The notes under the pieces: model-generated | Databases searched by the model: none | What the model was told of the DNA's origin: nothing | The model's input: only the letters and a program-made list of their open reading frames with translations | Shown here: positions 9,811-28,711 of the stretch, piece after piece | Numbering within the stretch: position 1 is the first letter of the stretch | Layout: each line of letters opens with the position of its first letter | Program-made: the position numbers and the translations under genes | Origin: Candidatus Latescibacterota bacterium | Lineage (GTDB): Bacteria; JAAXHH01 | Length of the DNA: 64,000 nucleotides | NCBI GenBank assembly: GCA_022821085.1 | Contig: JAJEEG010000006.1 | Location: 268,405 to 332,404 of the forward strand | Direction of reading: 5' to 3'

Positions 9811-10713
9811 TTATTGTTTCGATCTGTCCACGTGCCTGAGGTAGGTTTCGCTGGCAAAGAACAGGAAATCGTACGATCGCACCCGGTCGCGCCAATTGGT
9901 AGCGAGGTGGCGATATGTAAACACCCCCCTGGATTTCGATGGCAGCGTATCCTCTCCGTCATGTGTCACAACGGGCACAATCACATAATCCAGTTGCTCG
10001 CCGTTCTCGTCTTTCCAGACAACCGTGACAATGACGTCGCTGATTTCCGTACCCGTGTTATTCAATATGGTCCCGTTGCCAGTCACATATATACCGCCTG
10101 GGTCCGTGGAGAAGATTGCGCTTTCCTCCAGCAAGATTAAAGGTACCGGTGATAATTCGTCCCTGTCGTCTTCAGGGCGCAGGTCCCTGACTCTGACAAA
10201 GGCTGTATTGATGAAGAAACCCCAGTCAACATTGGCAATACGATCGTGAACAAGCGTTACATCATGTCGCCCGTTATAAGTGAGCGTTTCTCCTGGTTCG
10301 ACTTCTTTCTCATCTTCCGGTTCGATTATCGTAAAGAATACCCTACCAATCCTGGCGCCCTGGGTGTCATTTAAGAATATCCCCAACTGAATGAAACTAT
10401 CCTTCAGCGTATGGTCGGTTATGTTCTTAATGACGAGATGCATCACGGCATGTTTCTGCCCGTTCTCCGCGGTCTCATAATCGAGAATAAACTCTGATAA
10501 CTCGAAGACATATTCGAACGACAACAGACCGGGGATACCCGGCGGGCCTTGAGGCCCGGCCTCCCCCTGTGGCCCCGGTGGACCGGCAGGTCCCTGAGGG
10601 CCTTCGGTTCCGACCCCCGGAATTCCCTGCGGACCTTGAGGACCTGCCGGGCCTGCCGGGCCCTCACATGCCGAGAAAACAAAGAGCACTGAAAAGAGAA
10701 CCAGGTATCGCAT
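9811..10713 (-). CDS. lipoprotein with N-terminal collagen-like G-X-Y stalk and unknown C-terminal domain
   Basis: Signal peptide plus lipobox (FSAC). About 40 residues of collagen-like repeat follow immediately ([17 protein letters not shown]...GPPGIPG). Confidence 0.7.
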
Positions 10714-10781
10714 CGTTACCCCCTTTGTTCATGTTCAGAACGGTTGGGAAGGATCGCCGTTGCCGCCGGCCTCCACCCCAC

Positions 10782-13700
10782 TCACGGCACCCCGGTGCTG
10801 ACGACGACCTTCAGGCCCGGTTCGGGCAGCGTGCGACGCGCGGACACCCGGGATGTTCCCGGCGCCGGCCAGTCACGGAGGAAACCCCGGATTTCACCGG
10901 TGACCTCATCCAGCAGCAGTGCGGCGGACGAACCGCCTTCCACACCGCTATCCAGGCCGCCGTCCCGACCGCCGTCCAGGCCGCCTTTCTTGCTCATCGC
11001 TACAATGCCCCCGGGTCCGGACAGTTCGATACGCCCCAGCGCAGCGGGCCAGTCCGCGCTCAGCGGAACCGCGAAGACGAACCCGCCGGCTTCGACGTTG
11101 CCTTCCCCGCACACGATCTCGTCCATGGCGAAGCTCATATCGAATAGCGTGTTTCCATTGGCGGCCGCCCCGGATATCCGGTAGGGGCCGCGCTCCGGAG
11201 GCAGGGTCGGCGGCGCGTCGACCACGAATGAAGGCTCCAGGTAGAGCGCTCCGTCCTCGTCGACGCCTCCCCAGACCAGCAGGCTCTTGCCGGACGGCGA
11301 GAAGGATGAAACGGAGGGACGGTGCGACGCCCCGGACAACCTGTATTCCATCGACTTCCTGAAATTATAGTCGCTGGTCCAGTCGGGCGGACCGCAACCT
11401 GACATGTGATCCGGTGTAAACGGCGGCACAAGTTCGTTATTCCAGATATCATATCCCCAGACGCCGATATTTCCATCCGGGTAAGGGTAATTCTCGTCGA
11501 TGCCCGTCGGCCTTCCACACGGCGCATGCCCCAGGCTGAAGTTGTGTCCCAGTTCGTGGCCGATGTAGTAGGGATGAAGTTCGGCAACGGAATCGAGACC
11601 AGGCCTGAAGGCCCGTCCCCCTCCGCCGTAGACGATGCCCAGGTAGTACCAGTCCGCGCTGTCCATGGTTCGGGTCATCCGGGTCAGAAGGAGCGTGGAA
11701 TGCGTATCTACCGGCTCTTCCGAAACCCATACCGGGCTTCGAGCGTCCACAACCAGCTCGTGTACCGGAAGGTAAGTCATGGTCGGTCTCAGGTACTCGG
11801 AAGCCGATGTAACGCCGTTGATCTCCGCCAGTAGCGCTTCGTCCGGATTATCCGTCCATACCAGGGGAACCAGGGTCAGTTTCATCGGCGGAATCTCGTG
11901 CACGGCAACGGGGATCGCGCCCGATGCGGGAAGGCGGTCGGGCAACGGTACGGGCGCATCGTGAGTTCCATCCGGATCGATCTCTATGACCATCTCCAGT
12001 GTCGGCTGGATGACCGAACTGGGTATCATCGCGTTGGCCGTGGCTTCAAGGTCTCCCGCGTCGATGAGCGGCGGAATGACCTTGCCTTCGGTCCGCAGAT
12101 TCGTGACGTGTACCTGCGCATTGTTCAGGAAGAACCGCGCGGTCATGGGCGGCATGGGCGTTTCTACGGGCGCCGAGATGAATACGCGCAGGAGCGCTTC
12201 TTCTCCCGCCACCAGGGGCACGCTTGATCCCAGGGTCTGGGTCGACTGGGTCAGTACGGCCTTCGAACTCACCACGTTCACCTCCAGACAGGTGTTTACG
12301 CGGGAGTTGGGAATCGTATTGAGCCACTCCCACAGTACAGAATCTACGGGCTCGCACAACCTGGTGAGATCGAGCCGCAGTTCTTCCAGCATCAATCCGG
12401 TCAGGGCCGCCGGGATTCCTCCGGTGAGTCTGGCGTTATAGGACAGGTCGAGCTTTTTGAGGCTGACCAGACCACCGAACGACTCAGGCACGGCGCCCGT
12501 AAGCTCGTTATCCCGCAAGTCCAATTCCACGAGTTGCCCGAGCCGCCCCAGTTCGGGGGGGATTTCGCCCGTTAAACCGTTCCAGGGCATCTGCAGCTTC
12601 TCGAGATGCTCAAGCGCTCCCAGATCGGGCGGAATGGCCTCCGTCAGTCTGTTTACTCCCAGATCCAGTATGACTAGATGGGAGAGTCGTCCCAACTCGG
12701 ATGGGATGCCTCCCGTCAACCGGTTATTCGAAAGACTCAGTACCTTCAGTTGTTCAAGCTGCCCGAGTTCCGGCGGGATTTCGCCCGATAACGAATTGCC
12801 GGTCAAATACAGAGACTCGAGCTTTTGCATTTGCCCGATTTCGGAAGGGATGTCGCCGGTCAACCGATTAAGTGCGAGGCTCAGAAAGGTCAATTGGGAG
12901 ATTTGCCCCAGTTCGGAGGGGATGCCTCCCGTCAACCGGTTGTTGTAGAGATCGAGGTCGTTGAGTTTTTTGAGTCTCCCGAGCTCCGCCGGTATTTCAC
13001 CTGATAACTGGTTGTTTGATATACCCAGTGACGTCAGGGATTCCATCCTCCCCAGCTCCGCCGGTATTGCGCCGGTTAACTGGTTGTTTTCGAGTTTCAG
13101 TCCCTCCAGATTTTCCAGCAGCCCGAGTTCCGCCGGTATTTCTCCGGTCAGCCGGTTAAGGCCGAGATACAGGAGTTTCAGGTTTTTCAGCTCGCCCAGC
13201 GCGGATGGGATATCGCCCGACAACTGGTTGTTATAGAGGTTGATGACCGTGAGGCCGGAGAGTTGCCCCAGTTCGCGAGGTAAACGGCCGGACATTTCAT
13301 TCCCGGGAAGCCACAACGACCATATGCGGCCTTCCTGGTCTGTGTCTATACCATGCCAGGTCCTCAGGGGTTCCCCGCTCAGCCAGTTCGTGTTGTCCGA
13401 CCAGTTGGGCCCGTCCGTTGCGTTGTACAATGCGATCATAGCCTGCAGATCCGGTCCCGCCTCCTCTGCCGAGACGACGAACCTGGCGATGGCCTCCGCG
13501 TCCCCGGACCGGACCGAAATCCGGGCCGATCCTTCGCCGGTGGCGGTCACCAGCCCGTCCGGACTGACCGTCGCCACGGATTCGTCGCTGCTCGACCATT
13601 CCATGTCGGCCTCTTCGATGGGATGTTCGTTCCGATCGAGCACGACGGCGGCCAGCCGAATGGTGTCGCCGACGGCCAGGGCCCAGGCTTCTTCCGGTCC

Positions 13701-14390
13701 CAGGACGATACTGGTTGCGGCCTGCAGGACCGTAACGTCGACGGTCTCCTCGATGCTTCCTGATTGCGCGGTTACCTGCGCGGTCCCGTTGCCGGCCGAG
13801 AATACCCATCCGCTGTCGCTGACCGTTGCCACGGCCTCGTCGCTGCTCGACCACGCCACGACGGCCTCTACGATCGGATGTCCGTTCTGGTCCATCGCGG
13901 TCGCGACGACCCGGACCGAATCGCCTATGGCCGTAAACATTGCCTCGCCCGGTTCGACTATCAGTTCGACCACATCCTGCATGACCGCGACTTCGATACT
14001 CGCTGTCAGGGTCAGGCTGCGCACCGTGATGCGGGCCTTTCCCGGACCTCGCGCCGTCAACAGGCCCCTGTTGGAGTCAATAGCGGCAACGCGCACGTTG
14101 CTGCTGGACCATACGAGTGGAATGCCCGTCAATGGAGCGTTTCGCTGATCGAACACCGTGGCGGTCAACTGCCGGGTCTGACCGATCGAGTGGAAAGAGA
14201 CGGACGAGGGCATGATTTCGATCCGGGTCGCCACCGGCGCCGGTGGCGGAGGCGGGGACGTAGGCGGGGACGTAGGCGGTTGGGGCGGGCGAGCAGGCTG
14301 GGAAGGGCTTTCCTTTCCGCAGGCGGCCAGGACGAACAGGATAAGGCAAACGGCCAACCCGCGAGTACAAGGTGACGGGAAAGAGTACAA
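10782..14390 (-). CDS. large surface lipoprotein: Big_2 Ig-like domains + leucine-rich repeats + C-terminal metzincin-like zinc metalloprotease domain
   Basis: Lipobox LAACGKES and a Pro-rich linker. Four or more Big_2 modules (VATRIEI...). About 12 plant-type LRRs (LxxLxLxxNxLTGxIPxELGxL). HELGHNFSLGH zinc-binding motif encoded near 11525-11560. Confidence 0.8.
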   Translation of the reverse strand: MYSFPSPCTRGLAVCLILFVLAACGKESPSQPARPPQPPTSPPTSPPPPPAPVATRIEIMPSSVSFHSIGQTRQLTATVFDQRNAPLTGIPLVWSSSNVRVAAIDSNRGLLTARGPGKARITVRSLTLTASIEVAVMQDVVELIVEPGEAMFTAIGDSVRVVATAMDQNGHPIVEAVVAWSSSDEAVATVSDSGWVFSAGNGTAQVTAQSGSIEETVDVTVLQAATSIVLGPEEAWALAVGDTIRLAAVVLDRNEHPIEEADMEWSSSDESVATVSPDGLVTATGEGSARISVRSGDAEAIARFVVSAEEAGPDLQAMIALYNATDGPNWSDNTNWLSGEPLRTWHGIDTDQEGRIWSLWLPGNEMSGRLPRELGQLSGLTVINLYNNQLSGDIPSALGELKNLKLLYLGLNRLTGEIPAELGLLENLEGLKLENNQLTGAIPAELGRMESLTSLGISNNQLSGEIPAELGRLKKLNDLDLYNNRLTGGIPSELGQISQLTFLSLALNRLTGDIPSEIGQMQKLESLYLTGNSLSGEIPPELGQLEQLKVLSLSNNRLTGGIPSELGRLSHLVILDLGVNRLTEAIPPDLGALEHLEKLQMPWNGLTGEIPPELGRLGQLVELDLRDNELTGAVPESFGGLVSLKKLDLSYNARLTGGIPAALTGLMLEELRLDLTRLCEPVDSVLWEWLNTIPNSRVNTCLEVNVVSSKAVLTQSTQTLGSSVPLVAGEEALLRVFISAPVETPMPPMTARFFLNNAQVHVTNLRTEGKVIPPLIDAGDLEATANAMIPSSVIQPTLEMVIEIDPDGTHDAPVPLPDRLPASGAIPVAVHEIPPMKLTLVPLVWTDNPDEALLAEINGVTSASEYLRPTMTYLPVHELVVDARSPVWVSEEPVDTHSTLLLTRMTRTMDSADWYYLGIVYGGGGRAFRPGLDSVAELHPYYIGHELGHNFSLGHAPCGRPTGIDENYPYPDGNIGVWGYDIWNNELVPPFTPDHMSGCGPPDWTSDYNFRKSMEYRLSGASHRPSVSSFSPSGKSLLVWGGVDEDGALYLEPSFVVDAPPTLPPERGPYRISGAAANGNTLFDMSFAMDEIVCGEGNVEAGGFVFAVPLSADWPAALGRIELSGPGGIVAMSKKGGLDGGRDGGLDSGVEGGSSAALLLDEVTGEIRGFLRDWPAPGTSRVSARRTLPEPGLKVVVSTGVP

Positions 14391-14715
14391 GTACCTTGTC
14401 CCTTCTACCTACGCTTGCATTCAGGTTCTGATGATAACACGAAACACCGGCCCGTCTCAACCCGGTATCTCCGTCATGCCAGGCGGTCTGCCAGGACCGG
14501 CTGGACAGGCTGGGTGGTTTTGATTATAAATATACCGGTTCTTGTATGTAATTTGTGTGTGAAGTGCGGCTCGTTATATGTAATTTGCGCGATATTGGAT
14601 GTATGACTGTCTTTTTGCATTGAACCACGCAAAGGCGGGTACTTAGTGTAGTGGAATTTCGGCCGACCGGCGGTCCACGATTAGCGCGGAAACACACCGT
14701 GAACAGCAGTAGACA

Positions 14716-17091
14716 GTGGAAAAAAACATGACGAGTATGGAAAAACTCAGGCGGGAGAATGCCGCGTTGCGCGAGAGTATCTCCAAGCTGAACTCGGCCA
14801 GCCTGCGTATCAGCGCGAGCCTGGACCTGGAGACCGTCCTGCAGGAAGTCGTGGAAAGCGCCCGTGCACTGACCCGGGCGAGCCACGGCGTCATCGCAAC
14901 GATAGACGAGGAAGGCCGCCCCGTTGACATTCTCACTTCCGGCCTCACGGACGAAGAGCGACGGCAGATGATGGACTGGCCGGATGGTATCAAGCTCTTC
15001 GAACATTTACGCGACCTGCCGGGCGCACTGAGACTGCCGGACGTGCAGGACTACGTGCGGTCGCTGGGATTCTCCCCGGACGTACTGCCGTTCAGTACCT
15101 TCCAGTGCATGCCCATGCGCTCTGGCGCACAACACGTCGGCAGCTTTTTTCTCGCCGATAAGGAGGGTGGCGAGCACTTCACGGACGAGGACGAGGAATT
15201 CCTCGTGCTGTTCGCGTCGCAGGCGGCCACGGCGATCGTCAATGCCCGCGCGTACCGGGCGGAGCAGAGCGCGCGCGCCGACCTGGAAGCCCTGGTCGAG
15301 ACTTCACCGGTGGGCGTTGCGGTTTTTGACGCGGGGTCCGGGTGGCCGAAGTGGTTCAACCGCGAAGCGAGACGGATCGTGGAAGTCCTGATCAGCCCGG
15401 GAAGTCCGCCGGAGTCTTTGCTGGAACAGATCACATTGAAGCGCGCCGACGGACGCGAGATCGCGCTGGACCAGTTCCCGTTGTCCGAGGCGCTGATCCA
15501 CGCCGAGAACGTACGGGCCGAGGAGATCGTGCTATCGGTACCCGACGGACGTTCCGTCGAGACACTGGTAAACTGCACGCCGATCCATTCCGATGAAGGA
15601 GAGGTCCAGTCCGTCGTCGTCACGATGCAGGACCTGGCGCAGATCAAGGAACTGGACCGGTTGCGGACCGAATTCATCAGCATGGTGAGTCACGAGCTTC
15701 GGGCCCCCCTTACCTCCATCAAGGGCTCTGCGGCCACCCTGATGGAGGAATCACCGGGGCTGGATCCCGCGGAGACGCGCGAGTTCTACCGCATCATCAT
15801 GGATCAGACCGATCAAATGCGCCGGTTGATCGGCGACCTGCTGGACGCGGGCCGCATCGACACGGGCACGCTGTCGGTGACACCCGAAGCATCTGAAATC
15901 GCCGTCCTGGTCGACCAGGCGCGAAGCTCCTTTCAGAGCGGCGGCAGCAAGCACACGCTCAGGATCGATCTTCCACCGGACCTGCCGAGGGTCATGGCCG
16001 ATCGCGCGCGCATCATACAGGTATTGAACAACCTGTTCGTCAATGCCGCGCGTCACGCACCGGAGTCCTCCCCCATCCAGGTCTCCGCCATACATGATTG
16101 CCAACACGTCGAAGTCTCGGTACGCGACGAAGGCATCGGCGTGGCGCCTGAGATGTTGCCGCACCTTTTTCATAAGCACATCGGACTTGACGACCGTGCA
16201 CGCTCTTCCAATACAGCCGGCACGCGGCTGGGTCTTGCCATCTGCAAGGGGCTCGTCGAGGCCCACGGAGGGCGAATCTGGGCGGAAAGCGCGGGTATCG
16301 GCCAGGGCACGCGCATTGCCTTCACCATCCCGGTGATCCAGGAATCCGTGACCGCGGACCGCGCAACGATTCGGAGGGAAGCGCCCGGCGAAGACGAAGT
16401 GTTCGAACCCACGCGCATACTCGTGGTCGACGACGACCCAAGGATGCTGCAGTACATTCGGGACGCCCTCACCGAATCCGGTTTCGACCCGGTCGTAACC
16501 GGCGACCACGTCGAACTGTCGAGCATCATTCGGGCCGAAAAACCCCAACTGGTCCTGCTCGACCTGATATTGCCCGATACAGATGGCATAGAGTTGATGA
16601 GAAGCTTATCAGAACTATCCGATATCCCGGTCATCTTCATCTCTGCCTACGGCCGGGACGAAACCATCGCGAAGGCGCTGGAAGAGGGTGCGGACGACTA
16701 CCTGGTCAAACCCTTCTCGCCGACGGAACTCGTGGCAAGGATACGGACGTCGTTGCGCAGGCGGGCCGATCCCGAACCGTTCCTGCTGGGTGAGCTGGCG
16801 ATCAACTACGACCGTCGCCTGGTGAGCATGGGCGGCGTCCAGGTCGATCTCACCGCCAAGGAGTTCAACCTGCTTCGCGTACTCTCCCTGAACGCGGGCC
16901 GGGTGTCGACCTTCGATGCCCTGATTCGACAGGTTTGGGGTGCGCATGGCTACGCGAACCACAAGCTTGTGCGGAGTCTGATCAAAACGCTTCGGCGCAA
17001 GATTGGAGACGATGCGCGCGCGCCCGACTACATCTTCAACGTACGCGGGGTCGGGTACCGAATGGCCCGGCCCGGCGATGTCAAGGTCTGA
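14716..17091 (+). CDS. fused two-component protein: GAF/PAS sensor histidine kinase + receiver + OmpR-type winged-helix DNA-binding domain
   Basis: HisKA H-box (FISMVSHELRAPL). HATPase region. REC domain (ILVVDDDP...LLDLILPDTDG). Trans_reg_C tail (LTAKEFNLLRVL...GVGYRM). Confidence 0.85.
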   Translation: MEKNMTSMEKLRRENAALRESISKLNSASLRISASLDLETVLQEVVESARALTRASHGVIATIDEEGRPVDILTSGLTDEERRQMMDWPDGIKLFEHLRDLPGALRLPDVQDYVRSLGFSPDVLPFSTFQCMPMRSGAQHVGSFFLADKEGGEHFTDEDEEFLVLFASQAATAIVNARAYRAEQSARADLEALVETSPVGVAVFDAGSGWPKWFNREARRIVEVLISPGSPPESLLEQITLKRADGREIALDQFPLSEALIHAENVRAEEIVLSVPDGRSVETLVNCTPIHSDEGEVQSVVVTMQDLAQIKELDRLRTEFISMVSHELRAPLTSIKGSAATLMEESPGLDPAETREFYRIIMDQTDQMRRLIGDLLDAGRIDTGTLSVTPEASEIAVLVDQARSSFQSGGSKHTLRIDLPPDLPRVMADRARIIQVLNNLFVNAARHAPESSPIQVSAIHDCQHVEVSVRDEGIGVAPEMLPHLFHKHIGLDDRARSSNTAGTRLGLAICKGLVEAHGGRIWAESAGIGQGTRIAFTIPVIQESVTADRATIRREAPGEDEVFEPTRILVVDDDPRMLQYIRDALTESGFDPVVTGDHVELSSIIRAEKPQLVLLDLILPDTDGIELMRSLSELSDIPVIFISAYGRDETIAKALEEGADDYLVKPFSPTELVARIRTSLRRRADPEPFLLGELAINYDRRLVSMGGVQVDLTAKEFNLLRVLSLNAGRVSTFDALIRQVWGAHGYANHKLVRSLIKTLRRKIGDDARAPDYIFNVRGVGYRMARPGDVKV

Positions 17092-17131
17092 CACCAGACG
17101 CCGGCGAACGCTTCGTACCAGGTCGGTTTGC

Positions 17132-17521
17132 TCAGTCCTGCCTCTGCTTCAAAGCCCTGACTTCTCCTTCAACGCGGCCAAGCCTTTTGTTCAAGTCATG
17201 TATATCCGCCCTGACAACCTTGAATTCCTCCTGCATTTCGGTCCTGAGCGACTGCATTTCATCCCTGACGGCCTTGAATTCCTCCTGCATTTCAGCCCTG
17301 ACGGCCTTGAATTCCTCCTGCATTTCAGCCCTGAACGACCGCATTTCAGTCCTGAACGACCTGAATTCCTCCTGCATTTCGGTGCGCAGTTCACCGGTGG
17401 ATTGACCCATAAAGGTGATGACCGCAATGACAAGAATACCGACGGCAACCAGCACCTGGACAAATGCGATCAGTTTCTGGTACATTTCGTTCCCCGCTTT
17501 CGTTTTGCGTTCATGATTCAT
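17132..17521 (-). CDS. small N-terminal-TM protein with 11-residue repeats and C-terminal DLNKRLGRVEG motif (paralog family)
   Basis: 129 aa. TM helix (LIAFVQVLVAVGILVIAVITF). Repeats of the form EMQEEFKAVRA encoded by 33-bp DNA tandem repeats. Confidence 0.65.
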   Translation of the reverse strand: MNHERKTKAGNEMYQKLIAFVQVLVAVGILVIAVITFMGQSTGELRTEMQEEFRSFRTEMRSFRAEMQEEFKAVRAEMQEEFKAVRDEMQSLRTEMQEEFKVVRADIHDLNKRLGRVEGEVRALKQRQD

Positions 17522-17533
17522 TTCTGTTGATCA

Positions 17534-18180: not shown

Positions 18181-19419
18181 ATGACACGCTTGCGTCTCAG
18201 ACTCGTGTGCATTGCGTTACTGCCGGTATCCCTGTTCGTGCTTTCCACCTGCGGCAAGGATAGTTCCACCGCCCCAGGCGCTCCAACACCCCCTGCCCCG
18301 GTACCCGCCAGCATCGAAATCACCCCGGCGTCCGCTACGTTGAACGCCATAGATCAAACCGTTGAGTTGGCTCCAGTAGTACTTGACGAGAATGGTGCTG
18401 AGATCGCCGATGCTTCGGTTACGTGGACGAGTGGCGCCGTGGACGTTGCGACGGTTTCCGATCAAGGCCTGGTCACGGCGGTCAACAACGGGTCCGCGGT
18501 GATCACGGCACAGTCGGACAGTCTTTCGGCATCGGCGAGTATCACCGTCTCGCAGGTGCCGGTCCGTATCGTAATCGAGTTCCCGACCACGGAATCGGGC
18601 CAGGTCATACTGACGGACATGGGCGAGTTAAAACTGGTAGCCACGGTACAGGATAGAAACGGACATCCGGTGGCCGGAGCGGAAGTGACATGGTCGAGCA
18701 GCGATGAATCCGTAGCGACCGTCAACGATCAAGGAGTGGTAAACGAGGTCTCGAGCGGGTTTACTCAGATCACAGCCCGATCGGGAGACCTGTCAGACTC
18801 GATTAATTATGGTGTCTCGTTAAGTGTTGCACTGGGCAGGTTGTATATGGCGACAAATGGTCCGGATTGGACACAAAACACGAACTGGTTGACTGATAAA
18901 CCGTTGGAAGAATGGCACGGTATTACGGTCGGCTTGTTTGGACAGCCTACGATACTGAACCTGAACAACAACAACCTGGGTGGCTCGATTCCGACGGATG
19001 CGGGACAATTGTATTCTCTTGGAGAACTGAATCTGGGATCCAATCGGATTTCGGGCGAGATTCCCGCAACGATAGGAAAGCTGGAATTTCTCGGCAAACT
19101 GAACCTGAGCGACAACCAGTTGTCAGGAGAAATACCCGCCGAGTTGGGACGACTTAAAGAACTGGAGGTTCTGGCACTCGACAGGAACGAGTTGACCGGT
19201 GAGCTTCCGGCCGAACTGGGTAACCTTGCCAACCTCCGGGAATTACACCTGCAGGAAAATGAATCATTGAACGGACCTCTGCCTGATTCGTTTACGAATC
19301 TCGAGCTTCAAACCCTGGACCTGGATGGAACAGCGCTTTGCGTGCCGGCCAACTCGGAGTTCCAGGCCTGGATCGAAGGGATTGATAACGTAACCGCCGC
19401 CACGTGCCCTGATCCGTAG
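18181..19419 (+). CDS. Big_2 + LRR surface lipoprotein (paralog family)
   Basis: Lipobox LSTCGKDS. Two Big_2 domains. LRRs with the conserved C-cap GTALCVP...FQAWI...C. Confidence 0.8.
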   Translation: MTRLRLRLVCIALLPVSLFVLSTCGKDSSTAPGAPTPPAPVPASIEITPASATLNAIDQTVELAPVVLDENGAEIADASVTWTSGAVDVATVSDQGLVTAVNNGSAVITAQSDSLSASASITVSQVPVRIVIEFPTTESGQVILTDMGELKLVATVQDRNGHPVAGAEVTWSSSDESVATVNDQGVVNEVSSGFTQITARSGDLSDSINYGVSLSVALGRLYMATNGPDWTQNTNWLTDKPLEEWHGITVGLFGQPTILNLNNNNLGGSIPTDAGQLYSLGELNLGSNRISGEIPATIGKLEFLGKLNLSDNQLSGEIPAELGRLKELEVLALDRNELTGELPAELGNLANLRELHLQENESLNGPLPDSFTNLELQTLDLDGTALCVPANSEFQAWIEGIDNVTAATCPDP

Positions 19420-19946: not shown

Positions 19947-19959
19947 TACTGTTTAAGAC

Positions 19960-20273: not shown

Positions 20274-21395
20274 ATGAGCAACAAGCGCGTCGCCATCGTC
20301 GCGGGCGGACGGACGCCCTTCATCAAGTCGGGCAAGGCCTTCGCCGAAATCGATTCCCTGGCCATGGCCGTCCACACCACGCGCGGCATGCTGGACCGGA
20401 GCGGGATCGACCCGGCGCTCATCGAATCCGTCGTCTTCGGGACGATGACGCCCGATCCCCTGAAGCCCAACCTGGCCCGGGAGCTCGTCTTCGAGGCGGG
20501 GCTACCTATCCGCGCCGAGGCTCATACCGTGGCCTCCTACTGCATCACCGGACTGCGGGCGGTCACGGTCGTCGCCGACGCCATCTCCGGTGGCCGCATC
20601 GACGTGGGCCTGGCCGGCGGGGTCGATTCGCTCACCCGGGCCTCCATGGATCTCTTCCGCGAGCCGTCCACGGGCCTGACCATGGGCGAGCACATGGAGC
20701 TGACCTGCAAGGAATGGGACATCCCGCGCGAGCGGCAGGACGAGGTGGCCCTGGCCAGCCACCGCAACGCCGTGGCCGCGCGCGAGAAGCTTGCCGGGGA
20801 GATCCATCCGCTGCTGGGCGAGGAGGCCGACTCCGGACCGCGGGCCGACACGTCGCTCGAGGCCCTGGCCGCGCTGAAGCCCGTCTTTGACCCGGAGCAC
20901 GGCACGCTCACGGCGGGCAACTCGTCGCCCGTGACGGACGGCGCCGCGGCGGTGCTGCTGATGAGCGAGGAGAAAGCGGCCGAGTGCGGCCTGGAACCGC
21001 TGGCGTACATCGGGGGCATGGCCTACGCCGCCCACGACCCCTCGGAGGGGCTGCTCATGGCGCCGGCCATCTCGGTGCCCCGGCTCCTGGCCAGCCGGAA
21101 CCTGTCCATGGCGGACATGGACCTGGTCGAGATCCACGAGGCCTTCGCGGCCCAGGCCCTGGCCAGCGCGGCGGCGTGGGAGCGGGGCTGGAAAGGCGCG
21201 CCGACGGGCCCGGTGGACTGGGACCGCGTGAACGTCAACGGCAGTTCGATTGCCGTGGGCCATCCCTGGGCGGCCACGGGCACGCGCATCCTCACGACCC
21301 TGGCCCACGAGATGAAACGGCGCGACGCCCGCTACGGCCTGGTCAGCATCTGCGCCGCGGGCGCCATGGCGGGCGCGTTCCTGCTGGAGCGGTAG
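20274..21395 (+). CDS. acetyl-CoA C-acyltransferase (thiolase)
   Basis: 373 aa with the thiolase active-site context (CITGLRAV). [17 protein letters not shown] and [15 protein letters not shown]-terminus. Confidence 0.9.
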
Positions 21396-21465
21396 GGGGC
21401 GGCATCGACAGTATCCACGTCAGTGGGTGGCATTCATGAAGGGTTATTTGCGCGGTAGATTAGAT

Positions 21466-21753
21466 TTACCTGAACAATCTTACCACTATGGCCACGACGC
21501 CTATCAGTGTAGGAATCCCCAGGGTGAGAATGACTGTGAGTATGTAGGCTTTGGTAGGTACATGTTTCAATGTCTCTTCCATCTTCACCACGGAATCTCT
21601 GAGCGCATCTACTTTCTCCGCAGTGTTGTTCGTAGACACTTCCAGCCGGTCGAGCCTGAAATCCCTTGGTCGATTCCCATTACCGCTTCCACTGCTCGAA
21701 CCGCTGCCTTCTCCAGCGGGTTCGCCGGTTAATTCGCGATTGGGCAAAGTCAT
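21466..21753 (-). CDS. hypothetical tail-anchored (C-terminal TM) small protein
   Basis: 95 aa. Gly/Ser-rich N-terminus, helical middle, C-terminal TM (AYILTVILTLGIPTLIGVVAIVV). SD agagagg upstream. Confidence 0.45.
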   Translation of the reverse strand: MTLPNRELTGEPAGEGSGSSSGSGNGNRPRDFRLDRLEVSTNNTAEKVDALRDSVVKMEETLKHVPTKAYILTVILTLGIPTLIGVVAIVVRLFR

Positions 21754-21765
21754 TGGAACACCTCT

Positions 21766-21990
21766 CTACTCGAGCAACGACCCGATCAGCGGGATGACGA
21801 CGCACGCCAGCACGACGCCAAGCATCCATTTCATCAGTTTAATGTCGCTCTGCATCAGTTCGATGTCATTCTGCATGGAGGACAGTTTCCGCTCGAAGTC
21901 CGCGATTTCTTCGGCGGCTTCGCTGGCGGCTGCTTCAGGAGTACCAGCGGCTACGAGTGCGTCATACGTCTTGGAAAGCATGACAGGCAT
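21766..21990 (-). CDS. hypothetical tail-anchored (C-terminal TM) small protein
   Basis: 74 aa. Acidic/Ala-rich helix and C-terminal TM (WMLGVVLACVVIPLIGSLL). SD aaggatgg upstream. Forms a tandem pair with 21466..21753. Confidence 0.45.
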   Translation of the reverse strand: MPVMLSKTYDALVAAGTPEAAASEAAEEIADFERKLSSMQNDIELMQSDIKLMKWMLGVVLACVVIPLIGSLLE

Positions 21991-22191
21991 GATCCATCCT
22001 TTTCTGTCTACGAGTCGTCGTACTATGCGCAGGTACGCTGCACGCGTCCTGCCCGGCCCTTATCTATAATCGTCGGAAGCCGGGACGAGTTTCTCGTATG
22101 GACGATGTCTTTTATTGCTTTGGGAGAGATAAAAGACTAAAGGAGTGCTGGTCAGACCAGAGGAGAGGGGGCCGCCAACTCAGAACCCGCC

Positions 22192-24750
22192 CTACTCATC
22201 CCCGCCGCTCTGTCGCTGCTGCTCGAACTTCACGTCGGGATGGGCCACCAGGTTGATCCGGAAGTAGAACCCCTTGTTGATGCCGTTCGGCACCCACCGG
22301 AAGGTAAACTCCCAGCAGTGCAGCGGACGGTAGAGGTCCACGCTGTGGGAGACGATTTCCTTGCGGCGGTAGTCGTAGTTGATGGAGTGCTGCACGCGCC
22401 ATTTGTCGGTGACGCGGTTGGTCAGCCTGAGCAGGTCCGTGATGTCGTTCAGGGCGAACCGGTTCGTGGCCCGTATCTCGTGACGGCTGGTGGTGAATCC
22501 CTCCTCGGCGTCTGGATTCGAGCGCCGGATCGAGTAGTGGTGGGAGAGCCGGACCGTCCAGGGACCCTTGACCTGGGAGAACCGCTGGTCGAACCGGTCG
22601 TCGCCGTACCCGCCGTACCCGCCGTAGTCGTTGAACCCGCCGCCCGAAAAGCTGCTGCCCCCGAAGCTGCTCCCGCCCAATCCTCCGCCGGAGTAGTCGT
22701 CATACCCGCCGTAGGCGCCGCCGAACTCGCCGTCCCCGAGTTCATTACCGAATTCGTCCCTGCGCGGCCCCACGAGGTTGAGGGACGTGCTGAGCGTCAT
22801 GCGGTCCAGCCAGGGCCGGCGTAATTCGTCGGTTTCCGGATCGTAGAAATCGTGGTTCAGCGACAGATCAACGTTCAGCCGGCGGCTCGGGATGCGCACG
22901 GTGGTCCGCAGGTCCGCGAACTTCCGGTCCTCGGCCTGGAAATCGTAGGACGTCGACGATTTGACGTACACCAGGTTGTACTTCTTCTCGCGGCCCTCGT
23001 GTTCGGTCCTGGCCTGCAGGATGTTGTTCACGGAGAAACGCATCGTCTTCCGGACGCGCGCCCCCCCGGTCCCCCCGGACTGGGAGAAGTTGATGTCGGG
23101 CGTGACCACGTGCCGAATGGCGTTGAGCCGGCCGATCTTGGGCTGGAAGAGCCCGTAGAGCGTCGTGTTGACCGACATGCCCACCGTGTGGTCTTCCTTC
23201 TGTTCCCAGTTACCCTCGGTTTCCGGGTCGGTATCCTGCTCCCAGGTTCGGCCGTACCGGGCCTGCGGGCGGATCTTCAGCCAGCCCCCGATCTTCTGCG
23301 GCGCACTCAGGGTAAAGTCGTTGTCGAAGGTCCGGATGGATGCGTGCGTGTAGTGGTAACGGGTATCCGGACCCGTATGGGTCGTGTCCCGGTCGCCCCG
23401 TATGTTATTCCTGCGGTTCCGCAGCGTGTTGTTGAAACCGAACATGATAGTGTGGAACCAGCGATCCTCGATCTGCGTGCGGGGCTGGCTGAAGTCGGGC
23501 ATACTGCCCCGCCGCGTCTGCCTGCGGGGCGGCTTGAAGATCGCCTTCGTCCCGAAGCGGAACCGAAGCGTGGTGGTGGGCCGGCTCGGCTGGCCGGTCC
23601 GGCCGCTCGTGGACGTGCTCAGGTTGAGGCTGTTCCGCCCGAACTTCTTGTCGATCGCGAAGGATGAACGCGTCGTGGACCGCAGGAGTCCGGGGTCCGT
23701 CCCCCGCGTCGTCGAATGCAGGTACTGCAGCGATTGGGCGAAGTTGCCCTGCCCGCGGATCGTCAGGTCCGGGATCACTTCCTGCCGGTGCCGGGCGGTC
23801 ACGTCCCAGCCGGTCGTCGTCCCGTCGAAGCCTCTCCGCCACGAGCCGCTCGCCGAGCCCGTGAGCCGGCGGTCCTGCCGGTACTGGAACCTTTGCCTTA
23901 GCAGGAACCCGGTCTTGGCCTCGATGTCGGCTGTGGTCTTCATGTCGAAGTACTCGTTCGGCGCCCAGTAGTAGCCCAGGTTGCGCAGGTACCGGCCTTC
24001 CTCCACGCCGCTGCCGTAGTTCGGCACCGTGAGCCCGGACTGCCGGCCTTGCTTCACCGAGAAGACGTAGACGGGGAGATAGACTATGGGTATGCCCATG
24101 ATGTAGCCCGTCACGTTCCGGACGACCGCCTTGTCTTCGGGGACGACTTTCGCCTCGCCCATTTTCAGATAGTAGTGCAGGTGGTTCGGGTTGTCGCAGG
24201 TGGTGTAGGTGCCGTCGTGGATCTCGAAGGTCCGGTCGGCGTTGAGCGTGATGAGTTCGCCGTTGAAGAACCCTTCCTGGTACTGGGTGCGGCCCTTCCA
24301 GATCTGCCCTTCCCCGGTTTTCATGTCGTACTGCATGCGGTCCCCGACCACGACGTTCATCTCGTCCTGCAAACGGGGATAGGTATTGGTCTCGGGATCG
24401 ATGTCCGGCGACGGGGGCAGGAAGTCCGCGGTCAGCAGTTCGGAGTAGGTATGGAATCGCAGTCGCCCGGCCGTCAGCTCGACGTCGCCGTACTTCACAT
24501 AGGCGCTACCGATCATCACCATCATGGTGTCGGGGAATACGTACTCGATGCGTTTCGCATTGTAGTCGATCGGTGGCAGTCCGGTCGTATCGGCCTCGGC
24601 GCCGGCCCCGATCCCCATGCCGCCGGAAGGGAACTGCGCGAAGGCCGCCCCGGGAGCACGGCCGGCCAGCAGCAGACCGGCCGCCAGCAGAAAGATCGAA
24701 AGCCGGCCGGCCGGCAATAAACAGGCCTGCAATAAACACACCGGCAGCAA
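22192..24750 (-). CDS. LptD (OstA)-like outer membrane protein
   Basis: Signal peptide. OstA-like N-terminal beta-jellyroll region (ADTMMVMIGSAYVKYGDVELTAGRLRF). Long beta-barrel-like remainder with a Gly/Tyr-rich insert. Family assignment is tentative. Confidence 0.55.
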   Translation of the reverse strand: MLPVCLLQACLLPAGRLSIFLLAAGLLLAGRAPGAAFAQFPSGGMGIGAGAEADTTGLPPIDYNAKRIEYVFPDTMMVMIGSAYVKYGDVELTAGRLRFHTYSELLTADFLPPSPDIDPETNTYPRLQDEMNVVVGDRMQYDMKTGEGQIWKGRTQYQEGFFNGELITLNADRTFEIHDGTYTTCDNPNHLHYYLKMGEAKVVPEDKAVVRNVTGYIMGIPIVYLPVYVFSVKQGRQSGLTVPNYGSGVEEGRYLRNLGYYWAPNEYFDMKTTADIEAKTGFLLRQRFQYRQDRRLTGSASGSWRRGFDGTTTGWDVTARHRQEVIPDLTIRGQGNFAQSLQYLHSTTRGTDPGLLRSTTRSSFAIDKKFGRNSLNLSTSTSGRTGQPSRPTTTLRFRFGTKAIFKPPRRQTRRGSMPDFSQPRTQIEDRWFHTIMFGFNNTLRNRRNNIRGDRDTTHTGPDTRYHYTHASIRTFDNDFTLSAPQKIGGWLKIRPQARYGRTWEQDTDPETEGNWEQKEDHTVGMSVNTTLYGLFQPKIGRLNAIRHVVTPDINFSQSGGTGGARVRKTMRFSVNNILQARTEHEGREKKYNLVYVKSSTSYDFQAEDRKFADLRTTVRIPSRRLNVDLSLNHDFYDPETDELRRPWLDRMTLSTSLNLVGPRRDEFGNELGDGEFGGAYGGYDDYSGGGLGGSSFGGSSFSGGGFNDYGGYGGYGDDRFDQRFSQVKGPWTVRLSHHYSIRRSNPDAEEGFTTSRHEIRATNRFALNDITDLLRLTNRVTDKWRVQHSINYDYRRKEIVSHSVDLYRPLHCWEFTFRWVPNGINKGFYFRINLVAHPDVKFEQQRQSGGDE

Positions 24751-24997
24751 CCCCGTAACACCCGCCCATTTACTTTTAACTTTACATTTATTATAATGAA
24801 TGTTAATAATGAGCCTCAGTGACCTTTGGCATCGTGTTGTCCTGAACGCTCGGACCGTTTAAGATCGGAGATTCAGGGCGGTTTCTTCAAGTCCCTGCGT
24901 AATCTAAGTTAAACGGGTTAGCAGGCAAAGCGTTTCGTTTCAACGCCCTGAAGGGGCTTAAAGCCCGATGGACAAAAGAATTAATGAAGAAAACCGG

Positions 24998-25026
24998 TTG
25001 ACACGCCGGATGGCCGGCACTATACT
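24998..25026 (+). promoter_or_regulatory. consensus sigma70-type promoter (TTGACA-17 bp-TATACT)
   Basis: A perfect -35 and a 5/6 -10 with a 17-bp spacer. It lies about 320 nt upstream of the OMP gene at 25349. The intervening segment is rich in hairpins. Confidence 0.4.
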
Positions 25027-25348
25027 TGCAATTAGTATGGCCGTTTCGGGCGGAATCCCCGTGGACGCGGGGGCTTCCCCGTGGGCGGCCGGACGCGATT
25101 CCGGCCTGCCATGCTGACACCATCGAATTCGCTATCCGTCTTTAGAAGCATGGCGAATGTACGGTCGCCATCCGGGACGGCCTCGCGAAGCCGGTTCTTT
25201 GAAAACTTATACGGTCAGTTGAGTTTATGGTTGCAAAGGGCACGTAAAGAATTGTGTTGCAACGAAATAAAAAGATTCATTTTTTCCTTGCATTATCGAA
25301 GTGAATCATATTATATGGGTTCAAAACCCGTACTTTTCGTGAGGAGAT

Positions 25349-25837
25349 ATGGCAAGAATCGTATTTCTTTTGATTGCCACGCTTGCATGTGGTGATGCAT
25401 ACGCCCAGTTGGACATGAACCTGGGCGTGTCCGGCAGCAGGCCCTATTCTTGTCTTACGGATCTCACCGATTCAGGGATCGGGTACGGCGTTCGGGTCGA
25501 AATGGCTGCGGATTTGAACGACCGGTTTCAGTTCATTGGCAACTTGTCGTATGATCGGCACAACAGCGACTATTCGTCCCTCCCGGTCATGGCCGGGTTG
25601 AGGATGTCCACCACATCGGATGACGACATGTTCTGTTACGTCCAGGCCACGGCGGGAAGCTCGTACCGGGTCATGGGCGACGAAGAAAGCAGGACGACTT
25701 GGATTGTGAACGGCGGTATCGGTACGGTGTGGAACAGGCTGGGCGCGGTTGTGGAGTACAACATTTCAGACGATGCAGCCGACAAGTGGAGTTGGGTATC
25801 AGTTCGTACATTCTTGAGGTTACCACTCGGTTTTTAG
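25349..25837 (+). CDS. small outer-membrane beta-barrel protein
   Basis: Signal peptide (LLIATLACGDAYAQ). Alternating amphipathic strands. Ends in an aromatic residue (LPLGF). SD gaggagat upstream. Confidence 0.6.
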   Translation: MARIVFLLIATLACGDAYAQLDMNLGVSGSRPYSCLTDLTDSGIGYGVRVEMAADLNDRFQFIGNLSYDRHNSDYSSLPVMAGLRMSTTSDDDMFCYVQATAGSSYRVMGDEESRTTWIVNGGIGTVWNRLGAVVEYNISDDAADKWSWVSVRTFLRLPLGF

Positions 25838-25943
25838 TGTCCATGCCACGAAGAGGGCATATGGGAAAGGAGAGCATATAGATTGCTTACTTATGTACAT
25901 GAGCAGAATGTAAAGTGCAGTTCTCATTCTACGGGAGATACAG

Positions 25944-27398
25944 ATGCATTACTTCATAGTAGTACTGATTGCGTTCGCTCTCAGTATGTATGGATGCGAA
26001 GGTAAGACGGGTCCGGCGGGTCCGACCGGTGCCGCAGGCGCCGCAGGTCCGGCAGGTCCGGCTGGCCCGCAGGGTTCGACTGGTCCGGCAGGTCCGGCAG
26101 GTCCGGCAGGCCCCCAGGGTCCGGCTGGTGCTGATGGTGCCGATGGTGCCGCAGGTCCGGCAGGTCCGGCAGGTCCGGCAGGTCCGGCAGGTCCGGCAGG
26201 TCCGCAAGGTGAGAAGGGCGACACCGGCGAGCAGGGTCCGGCGGGTGCAGGCGCCGATCCGGGTGCTATCCAGGACATCGTTGATGGCGTCATCGGAACT
26301 GGTGTCCTGGCGGACATTCACCACATCCTGCTGTTGAAGGATGGTGAAACAGATCCTAAAAAAGGTATGGCGATAGATGTTGCAGGCGTGGCAGTTGGCG
26401 CCGAGATCGCCAGCGTGAACGTTGGCGTACTTGTAGGGGCATCCACATCTTATGTGGCCAAGGTTGCGACCGTCAGTGGACAGCCGATTCCCGCTACGCT
26501 TACCTGGACATCCGACGACGAGGAAGTAGCCTCGGTGGATGACGGTACGATTACAGGTAATAGAAGGGGATCAGCGACGGTAACCATGGCCGTAGATGGT
26601 CGTGGCATTGAAGTTGATTTCAAGGTAACCGTCCACGACGTTGTCAAGGGTATCATCGCTATTGCTGCCAGTGATACCAGGCTTGCAGTGGGTGATGAGG
26701 TTACAGTTAACGCTACTGCCTATGATGCCGCACAGACCGATGCTGCGGGCGCCGAAGGTAACGAGGTTCCCAATATAACCTTTACCTGGATGAGCTCCAA
26801 CGAAGCCGTGGCAACCGTGGATGAAGATGGCGTGGTGACTGCCAAGGGCGCCGGAAGTGCTGATATTACGGCCCACGTAGGCGACGTTAAGAGTAACAAG
26901 GTCGGAGTCACTGTATTCGACGTTCTGACTGTCGAACGCAGGATACGTGTAACCAACCTTCCCATCTCAGGGACGTATATCGCTGTCGGAGATACGCTTA
27001 TTTCTGACAGCAGCGTAGTTGCAGATGGATCTGAATCTGGTAGCGTCGGCGCTATCAATGTGGTTGTCGAGCAGTTCGATCCGACTTCTGGTGCAAGTGG
27101 AGCTTGGGCAGCTGTTACTGGCACTGATACTATGGTGAAGTACACAAGTCTGGATACAGACGTGATTACTTTTGCCGAAACCACCTCCAATACTGATGCC
27201 ACTCCCTATATGGGTACGGCTAGTATTGCTACCGATGGCAGCGGTAACGCCAATATGCCTGCGTTTACACACGATAATAGCGCAAACGGTAAGGTGGCAG
27301 GTCGAGGCACTGCCAGAATTGAGATTTCCACCCAATATGCTGATTCGCGCTATATTGAGATCATAGTATCAATTCCCTCTACCCACAAGGCCCCCTAA
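25944..27398 (+). CDS. lipoprotein with collagen-like stalk followed by Big_2 Ig-like domains
   Basis: Lipobox YGCEG followed immediately by about 95 residues of G-X-Y repeats ([10 protein letters not shown]...), then Big_2-type domains. Contains a perfect 9-bp tandem repeat. Confidence 0.8.
26151..26204. repeat. perfect 9-bp tandem repeat (gcaggtccg x6) encoding (AGP)n inside the collagen-like gene
   Basis: Six identical head-to-tail units, with three more related units at 26086-26112. Confidence 0.9.
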
Positions 27399-27518
27399 CC
27401 ACAGGATGAGTGGCTATACATTGATGAAGAAAGGTTATTGCCACTCAACAGGTCTTGGAGGGTAGCAGAGCAGAAACGCACGACAAATACAGAATACACA
27501 GTTGAACCGTGTATCTTC

Positions 27519-27580
27519 CCGTCCGTCCTTAGTAGGAGCTTTAGCGACCGAACAGGGCGGACGGTTTTTTTTGTGTTTTT
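27519..27580 (+). terminator. probable rho-independent terminator after the collagen-Big_2 gene
   Basis: ccgtccg...cggacgg stem followed by ttttttttgtgttttt. Confidence 0.45.
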
Positions 27581-27787
27581 CCGCCAGATCCCTCCCTCTT
27601 GACTAAGCCCCTCATGAAAGTTACTTTCTGCGTCGCGGCGTTTCATGGTTCCGGTTGCGTTATGCCGACGTGCCGACATACCCGGTAGACCGGGAATCCT
27701 TGCGCCGTGGTTTGGTATTGCATTGAATGCACCGTTTTGTGGAACGAATTTCATAGCCGATAGCGGCAACATCCGGAGGTCTCCATC

Positions 27788-28711
27788 GTGCTACGCCACC
27801 TCGCCAGGCTGTTACTCTTTCTTGTATTTCTAGGCTGTGAGGGACCGACGGGTCCGGAGGGTCCGGCCGGACCGGCGGGGCAGGCCGGCGCCGCCGGTCC
27901 GCAGGGTATCCAGGGTCCGGCGGGACCGCAGGGCGAACCCGGGGAGACGCTGGACTGGTCGGACGTAATCGAGACCGAGAATCTGGGGGACGCGGTCTAC
28001 GCGATCGGGGTGCAGATCCAGGGGAAGAACTACGTGCTGGGTTCGGGTTTCGTCGCACACTTCACAAATGCCGTCTGGACCAATGCCCGCGTCGTTCAGG
28101 CCGTCCTCATTTCGACCACGTTTATCGACCACCTCAACCCGCGGGCCTTTGCCGTCAAGTCGGGCACGGAGATTGGCGGCGCCGACACGTACTGGCTGGA
28201 GAACTACTGGGTTCATCCCGACTACGACGGCACAGCCGGCTCGCCCGACGCGGCCCTGCTCATCATCGACGCGAACCTGACGGACCTGCCGTTCTTCCTG
28301 CCCAGGGACCAGGCCCAGGGCCTGCGCGCGGGACAGCCCATCGGTACGATCGGGTTTCCGGAGGAAGAAACGGGCGAGTCCGTCACGGTCCCCATCGCCA
28401 CGTTCAATGGCGGCACGATCGGCGCGCTGAGGCCCTTCGAAGACGCGGTCCCCACGCCGGCGAACAGCCGGATCATCCAGCATGACCTGGACAATTCCGG
28501 CCGAACGAGCGGCAGTCTCATTTTTGATCACTCGGGATACATCGTCGGGATGAATTTCGCCGGGATCTTCCGGGTCGCCTACGACGCCCGGACCGGGGAG
28601 CCCACGCGCGTTCCGTCGGGAAACCCCGGCCTCGCCGTCCGCGTGGACGAGCTCTGGCGCCTCTACGACCTGGCAAGGGGGAGTGGGCGCCAGGTCGTGC
28701 TACTTCCCTAG
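27788..28711 (+). CDS. lipoprotein with collagen-like stalk and trypsin-like (S1/Trypsin_2) domain, possibly non-canonical
   Basis: Lipobox LGCEG followed by about 35 residues of G-X-Y repeats. Then GSGFV...TNARVV (Arg where the catalytic His is expected), DAALLIID (Asp box) and GRTSGSLIF (Ser box). Confidence 0.65.
   Translation: MLRHLARLLLFLVFLGCEGPTGPEGPAGPAGQAGAAGPQGIQGPAGPQGEPGETLDWSDVIETENLGDAVYAIGVQIQGKNYVLGSGFVAHFTNAVWTNARVVQAVLISTTFIDHLNPRAFAVKSGTEIGGADTYWLENYWVHPDYDGTAGSPDAALLIIDANLTDLPFFLPRDQAQGLRAGQPIGTIGFPEEETGESVTVPIATFNGGTIGALRPFEDAVPTPANSRIIQHDLDNSGRTSGSLIFDHSGYIVGMNFAGIFRVAYDARTGEPTRVPSGNPGLAVRVDELWRLYDLARGSGRQVVLLP

Follow-up and report, generated by a model that had tools for sequence, protein, structure and literature searches.

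Candidate lipid-anchored collagen-like proteins with exchangeable heads in a Latescibacterota genome and its relatives

Three genes in a 64,000-nucleotide stretch of a Candidatus Latescibacterota genome (contig JAJEEG010000006.1, positions 268,405 to 332,404; hereafter the window) encode predicted lipoproteins in which a collagen-like region begins one residue after the cysteine of the lipobox. We refer to these genes as A, B and C (Table 1). All three proteins start in the same manner, with a hydrophobic leader of 15-17 residues, a cysteine following FSA, MYG or FLG, a single glutamate and then Gly-X-Y triplets, and the N-terminal motif given for them in the first-pass annotation of this DNA, [AGY][AG]CEG[PK]xGP, is correct for each one. 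The reading we prefer, with a confidence slightly above even, is that the three proteins represent a widespread, so far unnamed class of envelope proteins, here termed lipo-collagens, which would form trimeric, lipid-anchored rods with exchangeable heads at the surface of the outer membrane.

Against the Pfam Collagen profile (PF01391, threshold 27.2 bits) B scored 50.2 bits and A 28.9 bits, while C stayed just under the threshold at 24.5 bits; most homologs of C carry the PF01391 annotation. Proline accounts for 20-31% of the residues in the three collagen-like regions. The number of Gly-periodic runs of at least 12 triplets expected by chance in the six frames of the window is 6e-8. A six-frame scan of the window found no further genuine collagen-like open reading frame (ORF), the short matches being alternative frames of B or an insert in an acyl-CoA synthetase. 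The latter gene (7364..9766, + strand) contains a low-complexity insert, GETGWEAGETGEAGEAGKAGKEAGEGETGE at 9080..9124, which scores as 5 triplets, lies inside the enzyme and is not collagen. The triplets had been described as uninterrupted in all three proteins, which holds for B (28 triplets) and C (12 triplets) and fails for A, where the 45 collagen-like residues contain one break, GIP-GV-GTE, of the 'G1G' type and one residue short. This break is common to all six full-length homologs of A and is present twice in two of them.

The lipobox cysteine is the sole cysteine in each of A, B and C. At positions 16, 18 and 17 it lies within the range of 15-35 residues from the start that is usual for lipoproteins. 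It is invariant in the alignment of the C family, in that of N-termini drawn from all three families, in that of the A family and among 116 catalogued proteins (see below); no family has lost it, which, as far as sequences allow the point to be checked, speaks against a non-functional lipobox. The cysteine is preceded by 9-15 uncharged residues, the last three of which fit [LFM]-x-[AG], and position -3 is occupied by F, M and F in A, B and C, respectively. According to the -1/-3 rule such residues are poor for signal peptidase I. The position of this one invariant cysteine, right where the hydrophobic core ends, and the bulky residue at -3 argue for processing by signal peptidase II and for lipidation. 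A PROSITE PS00013-type rule (positive charge in the n-region and no fewer than 10 uncharged residues up to the cysteine) was applied with a regular expression of our own and by hand reading. A passes this strict rule, as do most C-family homologs (MLRHAG...). Two proteins fail it, which counts against lipidation: the n-region of B, MHYFIVV, contains neither Lys nor Arg, and in C Arg7 leaves 9 uncharged residues, one short. These failures would be compatible with proteins that are not lipoproteins at all, are cleaved by signal peptidase I and use the N-terminal cysteine for interchain disulfides that staple the chains together, and cysteine knots beside the helix are indeed frequent in collagens. 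We consider this very improbable, since one cysteine per chain cannot join three chains, the residues at -3 are unfavourable for signal peptidase I, and the cysteine stands at the exact lipobox position after [LFM]-x-[AG] in every family. We infer instead that the cysteine is lipidated.

Conservation of the stalk could be followed in the relatives of C, for which 477 database matches were obtained. Among those listed, 105 are complete, and 99 of the 105 keep the Gly-X-Y pattern without a gap all the way from Cys+2 up to the L[DN]W at the beginning of the head. These stalks comprise 11-24 triplets, and insertions and deletions always involve whole triplets. The X and Y residues vary freely, with proline at 49% of X positions, and the +2 residue is Glu in 54, Lys in 35, Asp in 7 and Ala in 6 proteins. 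The DNA encoding the collagen-like region of C is weakly repetitive (9-nucleotide tracts of about 3 copies; an 18-nucleotide period with 61% match). A glycine phase that is kept while X and Y are free and length changes by whole triplets, even in weakly repetitive DNA, points to a triple helix and not to a linker. A linker would be the alternative, that is, a flexible, proline-rich polyproline-II spacer on monomeric lipoproteins that form no triple helix. Disordered tethers after the cysteine are common in lipoproteins, also in this genome (CGKESPSQPARPPQPPTSPP...), the stalks of A and C are short and lack hydroxyproline, and slippage-prone repeat DNA, such as the 9-nucleotide unit GGTCCGGCA present in 21.7 copies in the collagen-like region of B, would alone yield length changes of whole triplets. 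However, a spacer needs no glycine at every third residue, yet the pattern is kept in the 99 C-family proteins and in 111 of the 116 proteins overall, and slippage alone leaves the conserved phase in the weakly repetitive DNA of C unexplained. Moreover, the ordinary lipoproteins of the same window have linkers of a different kind, rich in Pro, Ser and Thr and placed after CGK[DE]S. We regard the spacer as improbable and retain the triple helix as the preferred reading.

The junction between anchor and stalk is nearly constant. Exactly one residue separates the cysteine from the first glycine in about 111 of the 116 proteins, and this residue is Glu in 87 (~75%). Among 218 non-redundant N-termini, proline occupies the X position of triplets 2 and 3 in 97% and 95%, respectively, compared with 50% overall; for the matches obtained by profile search this bias is partly circular, the profile having contained the motif, which lessens its weight for our reading. 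The same bias was present in loci found by a regular expression that did not require proline.

The same N-terminus is joined to many different heads. A motif scan for a lipobox-like cysteine with 6 or more triplets beginning 0-4 residues after it, covering the window and 1.31 Mb of related loci, yielded 76 ORFs with this design; once alternative-frame artefacts were excluded, the only genuine collagen ORFs without a lipobox were those of L028 and L049. In the fetched loci, trypsin-like heads were found in 51 ORFs (9-94 triplets), B-type heads with Big_2 domains in 16 including B itself (23-47 triplets), two CARDB domains in 2 (35-45 triplets), a GmrSD_C/HNH nuclease head in 1 (19 triplets) and small heads with no assigned domain in several. 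The protein with the GmrSD_C/HNH-type head (L015, 870..1562) is a putative envelope-tethered nuclease. Two proteins with trypsin-like heads (L022, 9347..10975; L023, 9500..11206) have unbroken stalks of 86 and 94 triplets with a high charge (GEKGDP, GERGEQ and the like), corresponding to about 74-81 nm.

When the 33-residue N-terminus was used as a profile in an exhaustive search of 1.84 billion cluster representatives, 1869 matches reached E <=0.001. The same N-terminal design was present in 40 of the best 150 of these 1869 matches, the top of which is dominated by long collagens. The heads of these 40 include DUF7151, DUF7481, BspA-type leucine-rich repeats (LRR_5) and many domains of 80-160 residues that lack an assignment, and the representatives looked up (n = 10) had no taxon and were named 'hypothetical protein' at most. 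In the pooled catalogue of 116 proteins the heads form 27 single-linkage families, one of them doubtful, so that at least 26 unrelated heads carry the module. No stalk interruption was seen in 111 of the 116 proteins, and the median stalk has 18 triplets, with extremes of 5 and 94; excessive shortness is thus not a general property of the homologs. Locus L055 provides direct evidence for transfer of the cassette between heads, or for its homogenisation. Two adjacent genes there, one with a trypsin-like head and the other with two CARDB domains, share a 133-nucleotide direct repeat (9726..9858 and 11016..11148, 99% identical) that extends over signal peptide, lipobox and initial triplets. The proposal of the first-pass annotation that a shared lipobox-collagen module presents different heads is therefore supported by the 76 ORFs, the 27 head families and the L055 repeat; a membrane-anchored display system, as suggested there too, would be a putative role of the module.

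Genes A, B and C had been assigned to one locus. This is accurate in a loose sense only, as B and C are adjacent and A lies 15 kb away, and A and the B-C pair each belong to a conserved neighbourhood of their own. The order thiolase, LptD (- strand), small outer-membrane beta-barrel protein, B, C is kept in at least 12 loci from metagenome-assembled genomes (MAGs), and the barrel protein precedes B and C in every such locus. The presence of LptD and of the barrel protein among these genes indicates a diderm envelope. An origin from a phage tail fibre or a prophage was rejected on account of the chromosomal synteny with thiolase and LptD and by the signal peptides. Within the conserved synteny the head of B is only 29-53% identical (26253..27395 of the window compared with L001-L013 and L025), whereas its neighbours are well conserved (thiolase 90-95%, barrel protein 67-94%, LptD 66-87%, C 64-91%). 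In the closest genome, the head of B is 53% identical and the flanking genes 91-94%. The best database match to this head reaches 70% identity, with a rapid fall-off thereafter. Divergence so much faster than that of the flanks is expected of an exposed protein, and from these comparisons the head of B looks exposed and rapidly diversifying or replaced.

The three different heads announced for A, B and C were confirmed for B, with two Big_2 domains, and for C, which matches Trypsin_2 (PF13365, 39.6 bits; cut-off 27.6). In C, Arg101 (CGC, 28088..28090) stands in the column of the catalytic histidine (TNAHV), while Asp154 and Ser241 are invariant. The protein has no complete His-Asp-Ser triad. 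Within the family this column holds H, R or T, histidine being found in most homologs. In addition, the TAG stop codon of C takes the place of a Glu in the tail PEQDYPHxxYxPFPxNWNGxTxLP conserved among the homologs, the remainder of which can still be read in frame downstream (Table 1). A protein 94% identical to C (P0008) has the same Arg and the same truncation point, so neither defect is a sequencing error. Hence, the head of C looks catalytically dead and truncated in this genome. A search of PDB with the C-family profile gave weak matches to Deg1 (3qo6, E 8e-4), HhoA and DegQ, up to E 0.05. When C was compared with PDB by its sequence alone, only collagen peptides were matched; the Pfam scan gave no PDZ match for C, and TIGR02037 reached 12.6 bits against a cut-off of 416. 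The profile matches weakly suggest that the head of C is distantly HtrA/Deg-like.

The head of A, for which no Pfam domain was detected in the Pfam scan, had been considered unknown. It is not wholly so, as residues 212-246 match the NCBIfam FxLYD domain (NF038353, 28.2 bits; cut-off 23), and the head is a beta-sandwich with an FxLYD domain, the rest of it having no domain assignment. An exact look-up of A among public assemblies gave no record. Seven relatives of this head were found in the database (63-87% identity), and the six full-length ones retain ACEGP and have 14-25 triplets. A follows a large lipoprotein gene on the same strand after a gap of 68 nucleotides. The same pair occurs in L070 and L071 with a gap of 33 nucleotides, and in every case (window, L070 and L071) A lies directly downstream of the Big_2-LRR-M66-like lipoprotein. 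This arrangement suggests an operon and a functional link between the two proteins.

Table 1. Positions in the window of genes A, B and C, their parts and two neighbouring genes
Feature	Position	Strand	Description
Gene A	9811..10713	-	300 aa; ORF confirmed at these coordinates
A, signal peptide and lipobox	Cys16 at 10666..10668		signal peptide residues 1-15; lipobox FSA-C; Glu17
A, collagen-like region	10528..10662		residues 18-62; 5 triplets, G1G break GV-GTE, 9 triplets
A, head	9814..10527		residues 63-300
Upstream partner of A	10782..14390	-	1202-aa lipoprotein, LAA-CGKES; Big_2/Big_1, leucine-rich repeats (LRR), M66-like metallopeptidase region (Pfam)
Small outer-membrane beta-barrel protein	25349..25837	+	162 aa; OMP_b-brl E 4.5e-6, 27.4 bits (cut-off 28.7)
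Gene B	25944..27398	+	484 aa; ORF confirmed at these coordinates
B, signal peptide and lipobox	Cys18 at 25995..25997		signal peptide residues 1-17; lipobox MYG-C; Glu19
B, collagen-like region	26001..26252	+	28 triplets, 84 residues, unbroken
B, head	26253..27395	+	two Big_2 domains and a C-terminal part with no assigned domain
Gene C	27788..28711	+	307 aa, GTG start; ORF confirmed at these coordinates
C, signal peptide and lipobox	Cys17 at 27836..27838		signal peptide residues 1-16; lipobox FLG-C; Glu18; N-terminus MLRHLARLLLFLVFLG-C-E-GPTGPEGP...
C, collagen-like region	27842..27949	+	12 triplets, 36 residues, unbroken
C, head	27950..28708	+	Trypsin_2; stop codon TAG at 28709..28711
C, tail relic	28712..28798	+	in frame past TAG: QDFPHLAFRSYPAFKPFPDRWNGEAELS, then TAA (readable 28712..28795)

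In the model that we favour, the proteins would be exported by the Sec pathway. The cysteine would be diacylglycerylated, the signal peptide of 15-17 residues cut off just before it and the new N-terminus acylated (Lgt/LspA/Lnt), giving a mature chain that consists of a lipid-modified cysteine, one residue (mostly Glu) and Gly-X-Y triplets. Three such chains would wind around each other as a collagen triple helix. The resulting rod would be rigid, with a width of about 1.5 nm and a rise of 0.286 nm per residue. The three clustered lipid anchors, one residue before the first glycine, would keep the chains in register, and the near-invariant junction G-x-x-G-P-x-G-P would start the helix. The head would thereby be held at about 13 nm from the membrane in A, about 24 nm in B and about 10 nm in C, and at up to about 81 nm in orthologs. 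On the outer face of the outer membrane, such rods would raise their heads, adhesin-like ones as well as enzymes, beyond the lipopolysaccharide layer. N-acylated synthetic collagen-model peptides do form triple helices that are anchored in liposome bilayers, with the helix protruding (PMC3505660). Trimerisation and lipid-assisted nucleation are what we infer for the natural proteins. In work by Yu, Tirrell and Fields (1996-1998), acyl tails reportedly raise the melting temperature of such helices.

Several observations weigh against a trimeric rod. The G1G break would interrupt the collagen helix of A. The stalks of A and C, with 12-15 triplets and no hydroxyproline, are short. As bacterial collagen fragments in isolation have melting temperatures near 25-30 C at a length of about 26 triplets, A and C would need lipid clustering or trimerisation of the heads. 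We know of no Big_2 or FxLYD head that acts as a trimeriser. AlphaFold2 models of A reached a mean pLDDT (predicted local distance difference test) of 38.7 with the single sequence and of 45.1 with an 8-sequence alignment, values of 50-85 being confined to the first beta-sandwich; these were single-chain runs and are uninformative on trimers. A bolder form of the model is that A, B and C represent natural lipid-nucleated collagens, in which triacyl-Cys and the junction C-[E/K]-G-x-x-G-P-x-G-P would replace a trimerisation domain. The signal-stalk cassette would then be a recombining one, defining a surface-export class, and animal-associated Latescibacterota and Gemmatimonadota, along with other uncultured bacteria, would employ its rods of tunable length in contacts with a collagen-rich host matrix. 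We offer this as speculation and on balance doubt it.

A location on the outer surface is probable, and it is the weakest link of the model. It is favoured by stalks of 8-81 nm, by heads that are adhesin-like or resemble extracellular enzymes and by the fast diversification of B. Given the width of the periplasm, a stalk longer than about 30 nm cannot stand upright inside it. The competing reading is a periplasmic tether or ruler, with its lipid in the inner membrane or in the outer membrane's inner leaflet and the rod fixing the depth of the head, much like the trimeric coiled coil of Braun's lipoprotein. The weak Deg1 and TIGR02037 matches of C are in line with it, HtrA proteases being periplasmic trimers, as is the length of the A and C stalks (10-13 nm), which would fit the periplasm. 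Further points against the surface come from the N-terminus. The surface-export signal of Bacteroidetes (LES) consists of K-(D/E)2, or of a polar and several acidic residues, at +2 to +6 (PMC5080379). It is not matched by the mature N-termini C-E-G-P/K-x-G-P, which have one acidic residue followed by Gly-X-Y, and the LES was dropped as support for surface export because A, B and C lack the motif. In E. coli, Asp as the acidic residue at +2 causes retention in the inner membrane, and the Glu or Asp found at +2 recalls this rule. Likewise, the members with short stalks would fit in the periplasm. However, orthologous trypsin-like heads are carried on 9-94 triplets (~8-81 nm), which leaves no fixed distance to be measured and includes rods that would not fit upright. 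Big_2, CARDB, BspA-type leucine-rich repeat and nuclease heads are usual in surface or extracellular proteins, and the head of B evolves much faster than its neighbours. We therefore judge the periplasmic reading rather unlikely and continue to prefer rods on the outer face.

A scan restricted to one genome per species gave 68 loci. The relatives come from MAGs labelled Latescibacterota, Gemmatimonadota or Longimicrobiales and from a few Spirochaetia, with multiple paralogs per genome. The closest locus (L001) belongs to a Latescibacterota MAG, and its C protein is 91% identical. Isolate-name prefixes among the MAGs include APA_, IRC1_, COS4_, RHO1_, SB0665 and Plut_, which we take to denote sponge or coral hosts; relatives are also present in MAGs from the water column and from sediment (SI072/SI074, CSSed). 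The source bacterium is probably a marine associate of sponges or corals. Four lipoproteins of the window combine Big_2/Big_1 domains with leucine-rich repeats (10782..14390, -; 18181..19419, +; 28956..30968, +; 39528..41957, -). They start with CGK[DE]S followed by a linker rich in Pro, Thr and Ser, and one has an M66-like peptidase region. These are eukaryote-like repeat proteins, typical of sponge symbionts. A further gene (17132..17521, - strand) encodes a protein of 129 residues with one membrane span and a coiled coil of 33-nucleotide (11-residue) tandem repeats (EMQEEFKAVRA...), which is 80% identical in L001.

Another possibility is that the collagen part is itself a ligand that mimics host matrix, through receptor binding or masking in the collagenous mesohyl, with the heads being secondary. 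Many of the related MAG names point to sponges or a coral, Scl1 of streptococci uses its collagen domain to bind host receptors, and the window contains the four Big_2/LRR lipoproteins described above; sponge-associated Latescibacterota are known to be rich in eukaryote-like repeat proteins (PMC8163846). We nevertheless hold mimicry to be improbable. An integrin-type motif such as GxPGER was not seen, although no search was aimed at such motifs; the triplets are of simple kinds (GPA, GPQ, GPT) with free variation at X and Y, relatives occur in water-column and sediment MAGs as well, and the diversity and conservation of the heads argue that function lies in the heads.

Parts of this design are known from other systems. 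BclA of the Bacillus exosporium (PDB 1wck), which was among the collagen matches of the C-family profile in PDB, also has an N-terminal anchor, a collagen stalk whose triplet number varies between strains and a C-terminal globular head kept at a distance from the surface, but its anchor is a peptide attached to the exosporium basal layer, its single head type is a C1q/TNF-like trimer and it belongs to Gram-positive spores. Streptococcal Scl1/Scl2 (SclA/SclB) are surface 'lollipops' with a hydroxyproline-free, triple-helical stalk of variable triplet number. Unlike A, B and C, they carry the head at the N-terminus and are anchored to peptidoglycan by a C-terminal LPXTG sortase motif, of which no instance was found in the A, B and C sequences. 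The Scl1/Scl2 models (NF038330, NF038329) scored 21-59 bits against A, B and C, compared with cut-offs of 325-400, and the Legionella Lcl adhesin model (NF046116) 21-53 bits, where an equivalog needs 500; in both cases the match was limited to the collagen part. According to PMC4565658, Burkholderia Bucl8 and Bucl3 are likewise predicted lipoproteins with a collagen-like region in a diderm, the lipid-binding cysteine of Bucl8 heading two outer-membrane efflux (OEP) domains. Bucl8 and Bucl3 also differ from A, B and C in forming no family with swappable heads. The collagen-like region of Bucl8 is said to lie elsewhere in the protein than the lipid-binding cysteine.

Braun's lipoprotein (Lpp) resembles the proposed rods in being a trimer that extends from a lipidated cysteine as a spacer of defined length. 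It is, however, an alpha-helical coiled coil of about 8 nm, periplasmic, headless and bound to peptidoglycan by its C-terminal lysine. In eukaryotes, ColQ-tailed acetylcholinesterase, class A scavenger receptors and MARCO, and collagens XIII and XVII use a collagen rod to join an anchor to an enzyme or binding head. Their anchors are transmembrane or matrix-bound, they contain hydroxyproline and they trimerise through separate domains; they are analogous rather than homologous. Similar to the predicted N-terminus are the peptide-amphiphiles of Fields and Tirrell, in which an acyl tail on the N-terminus of Gly-X-Y repeats inserts into a bilayer while the helix protrudes (PMC3505660), although these are man-made, have Gly-Pro-Hyp caps and no protein head, and the natural form would have three acyl chains per strand.

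Our literature search found no description of a lipobox-adjacent collagen, nor of collagen-like proteins in sponge-associated Latescibacterota or Gemmatimonadota; matches in the Cardinium literature concern separate proteins and were set aside. The parts, namely a lipoprotein, a bacterial collagen stalk and known head domains, are familiar. Undescribed are the fixed junction between lipid and helix, the wide range of heads that can be swapped and the sharing of the cassette. Bacterial collagens are under study as hydroxyproline-free biomaterials, and the onset of their helix is generally held to depend on a folded trimerisation domain. If the model is true, a large natural family whose helix begins one residue past a lipid anchor would be nature's equivalent of synthetic collagen peptide-amphiphiles and would offer a simple scaffold to display proteins at set distances from a membrane. 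For the organisms, it would mean an unnamed class of envelope proteins, with adhesin-like heads that evolve fast and with enzyme heads, which is apparently abundant in uncultured lineages from the sea, many of them from sponges and corals. Such proteins, which surveys of 'eukaryote-like proteins' (ankyrin, leucine-rich, tetratricopeptide and similar repeats) do not count, would be candidates for interactions with host matrix or phages.

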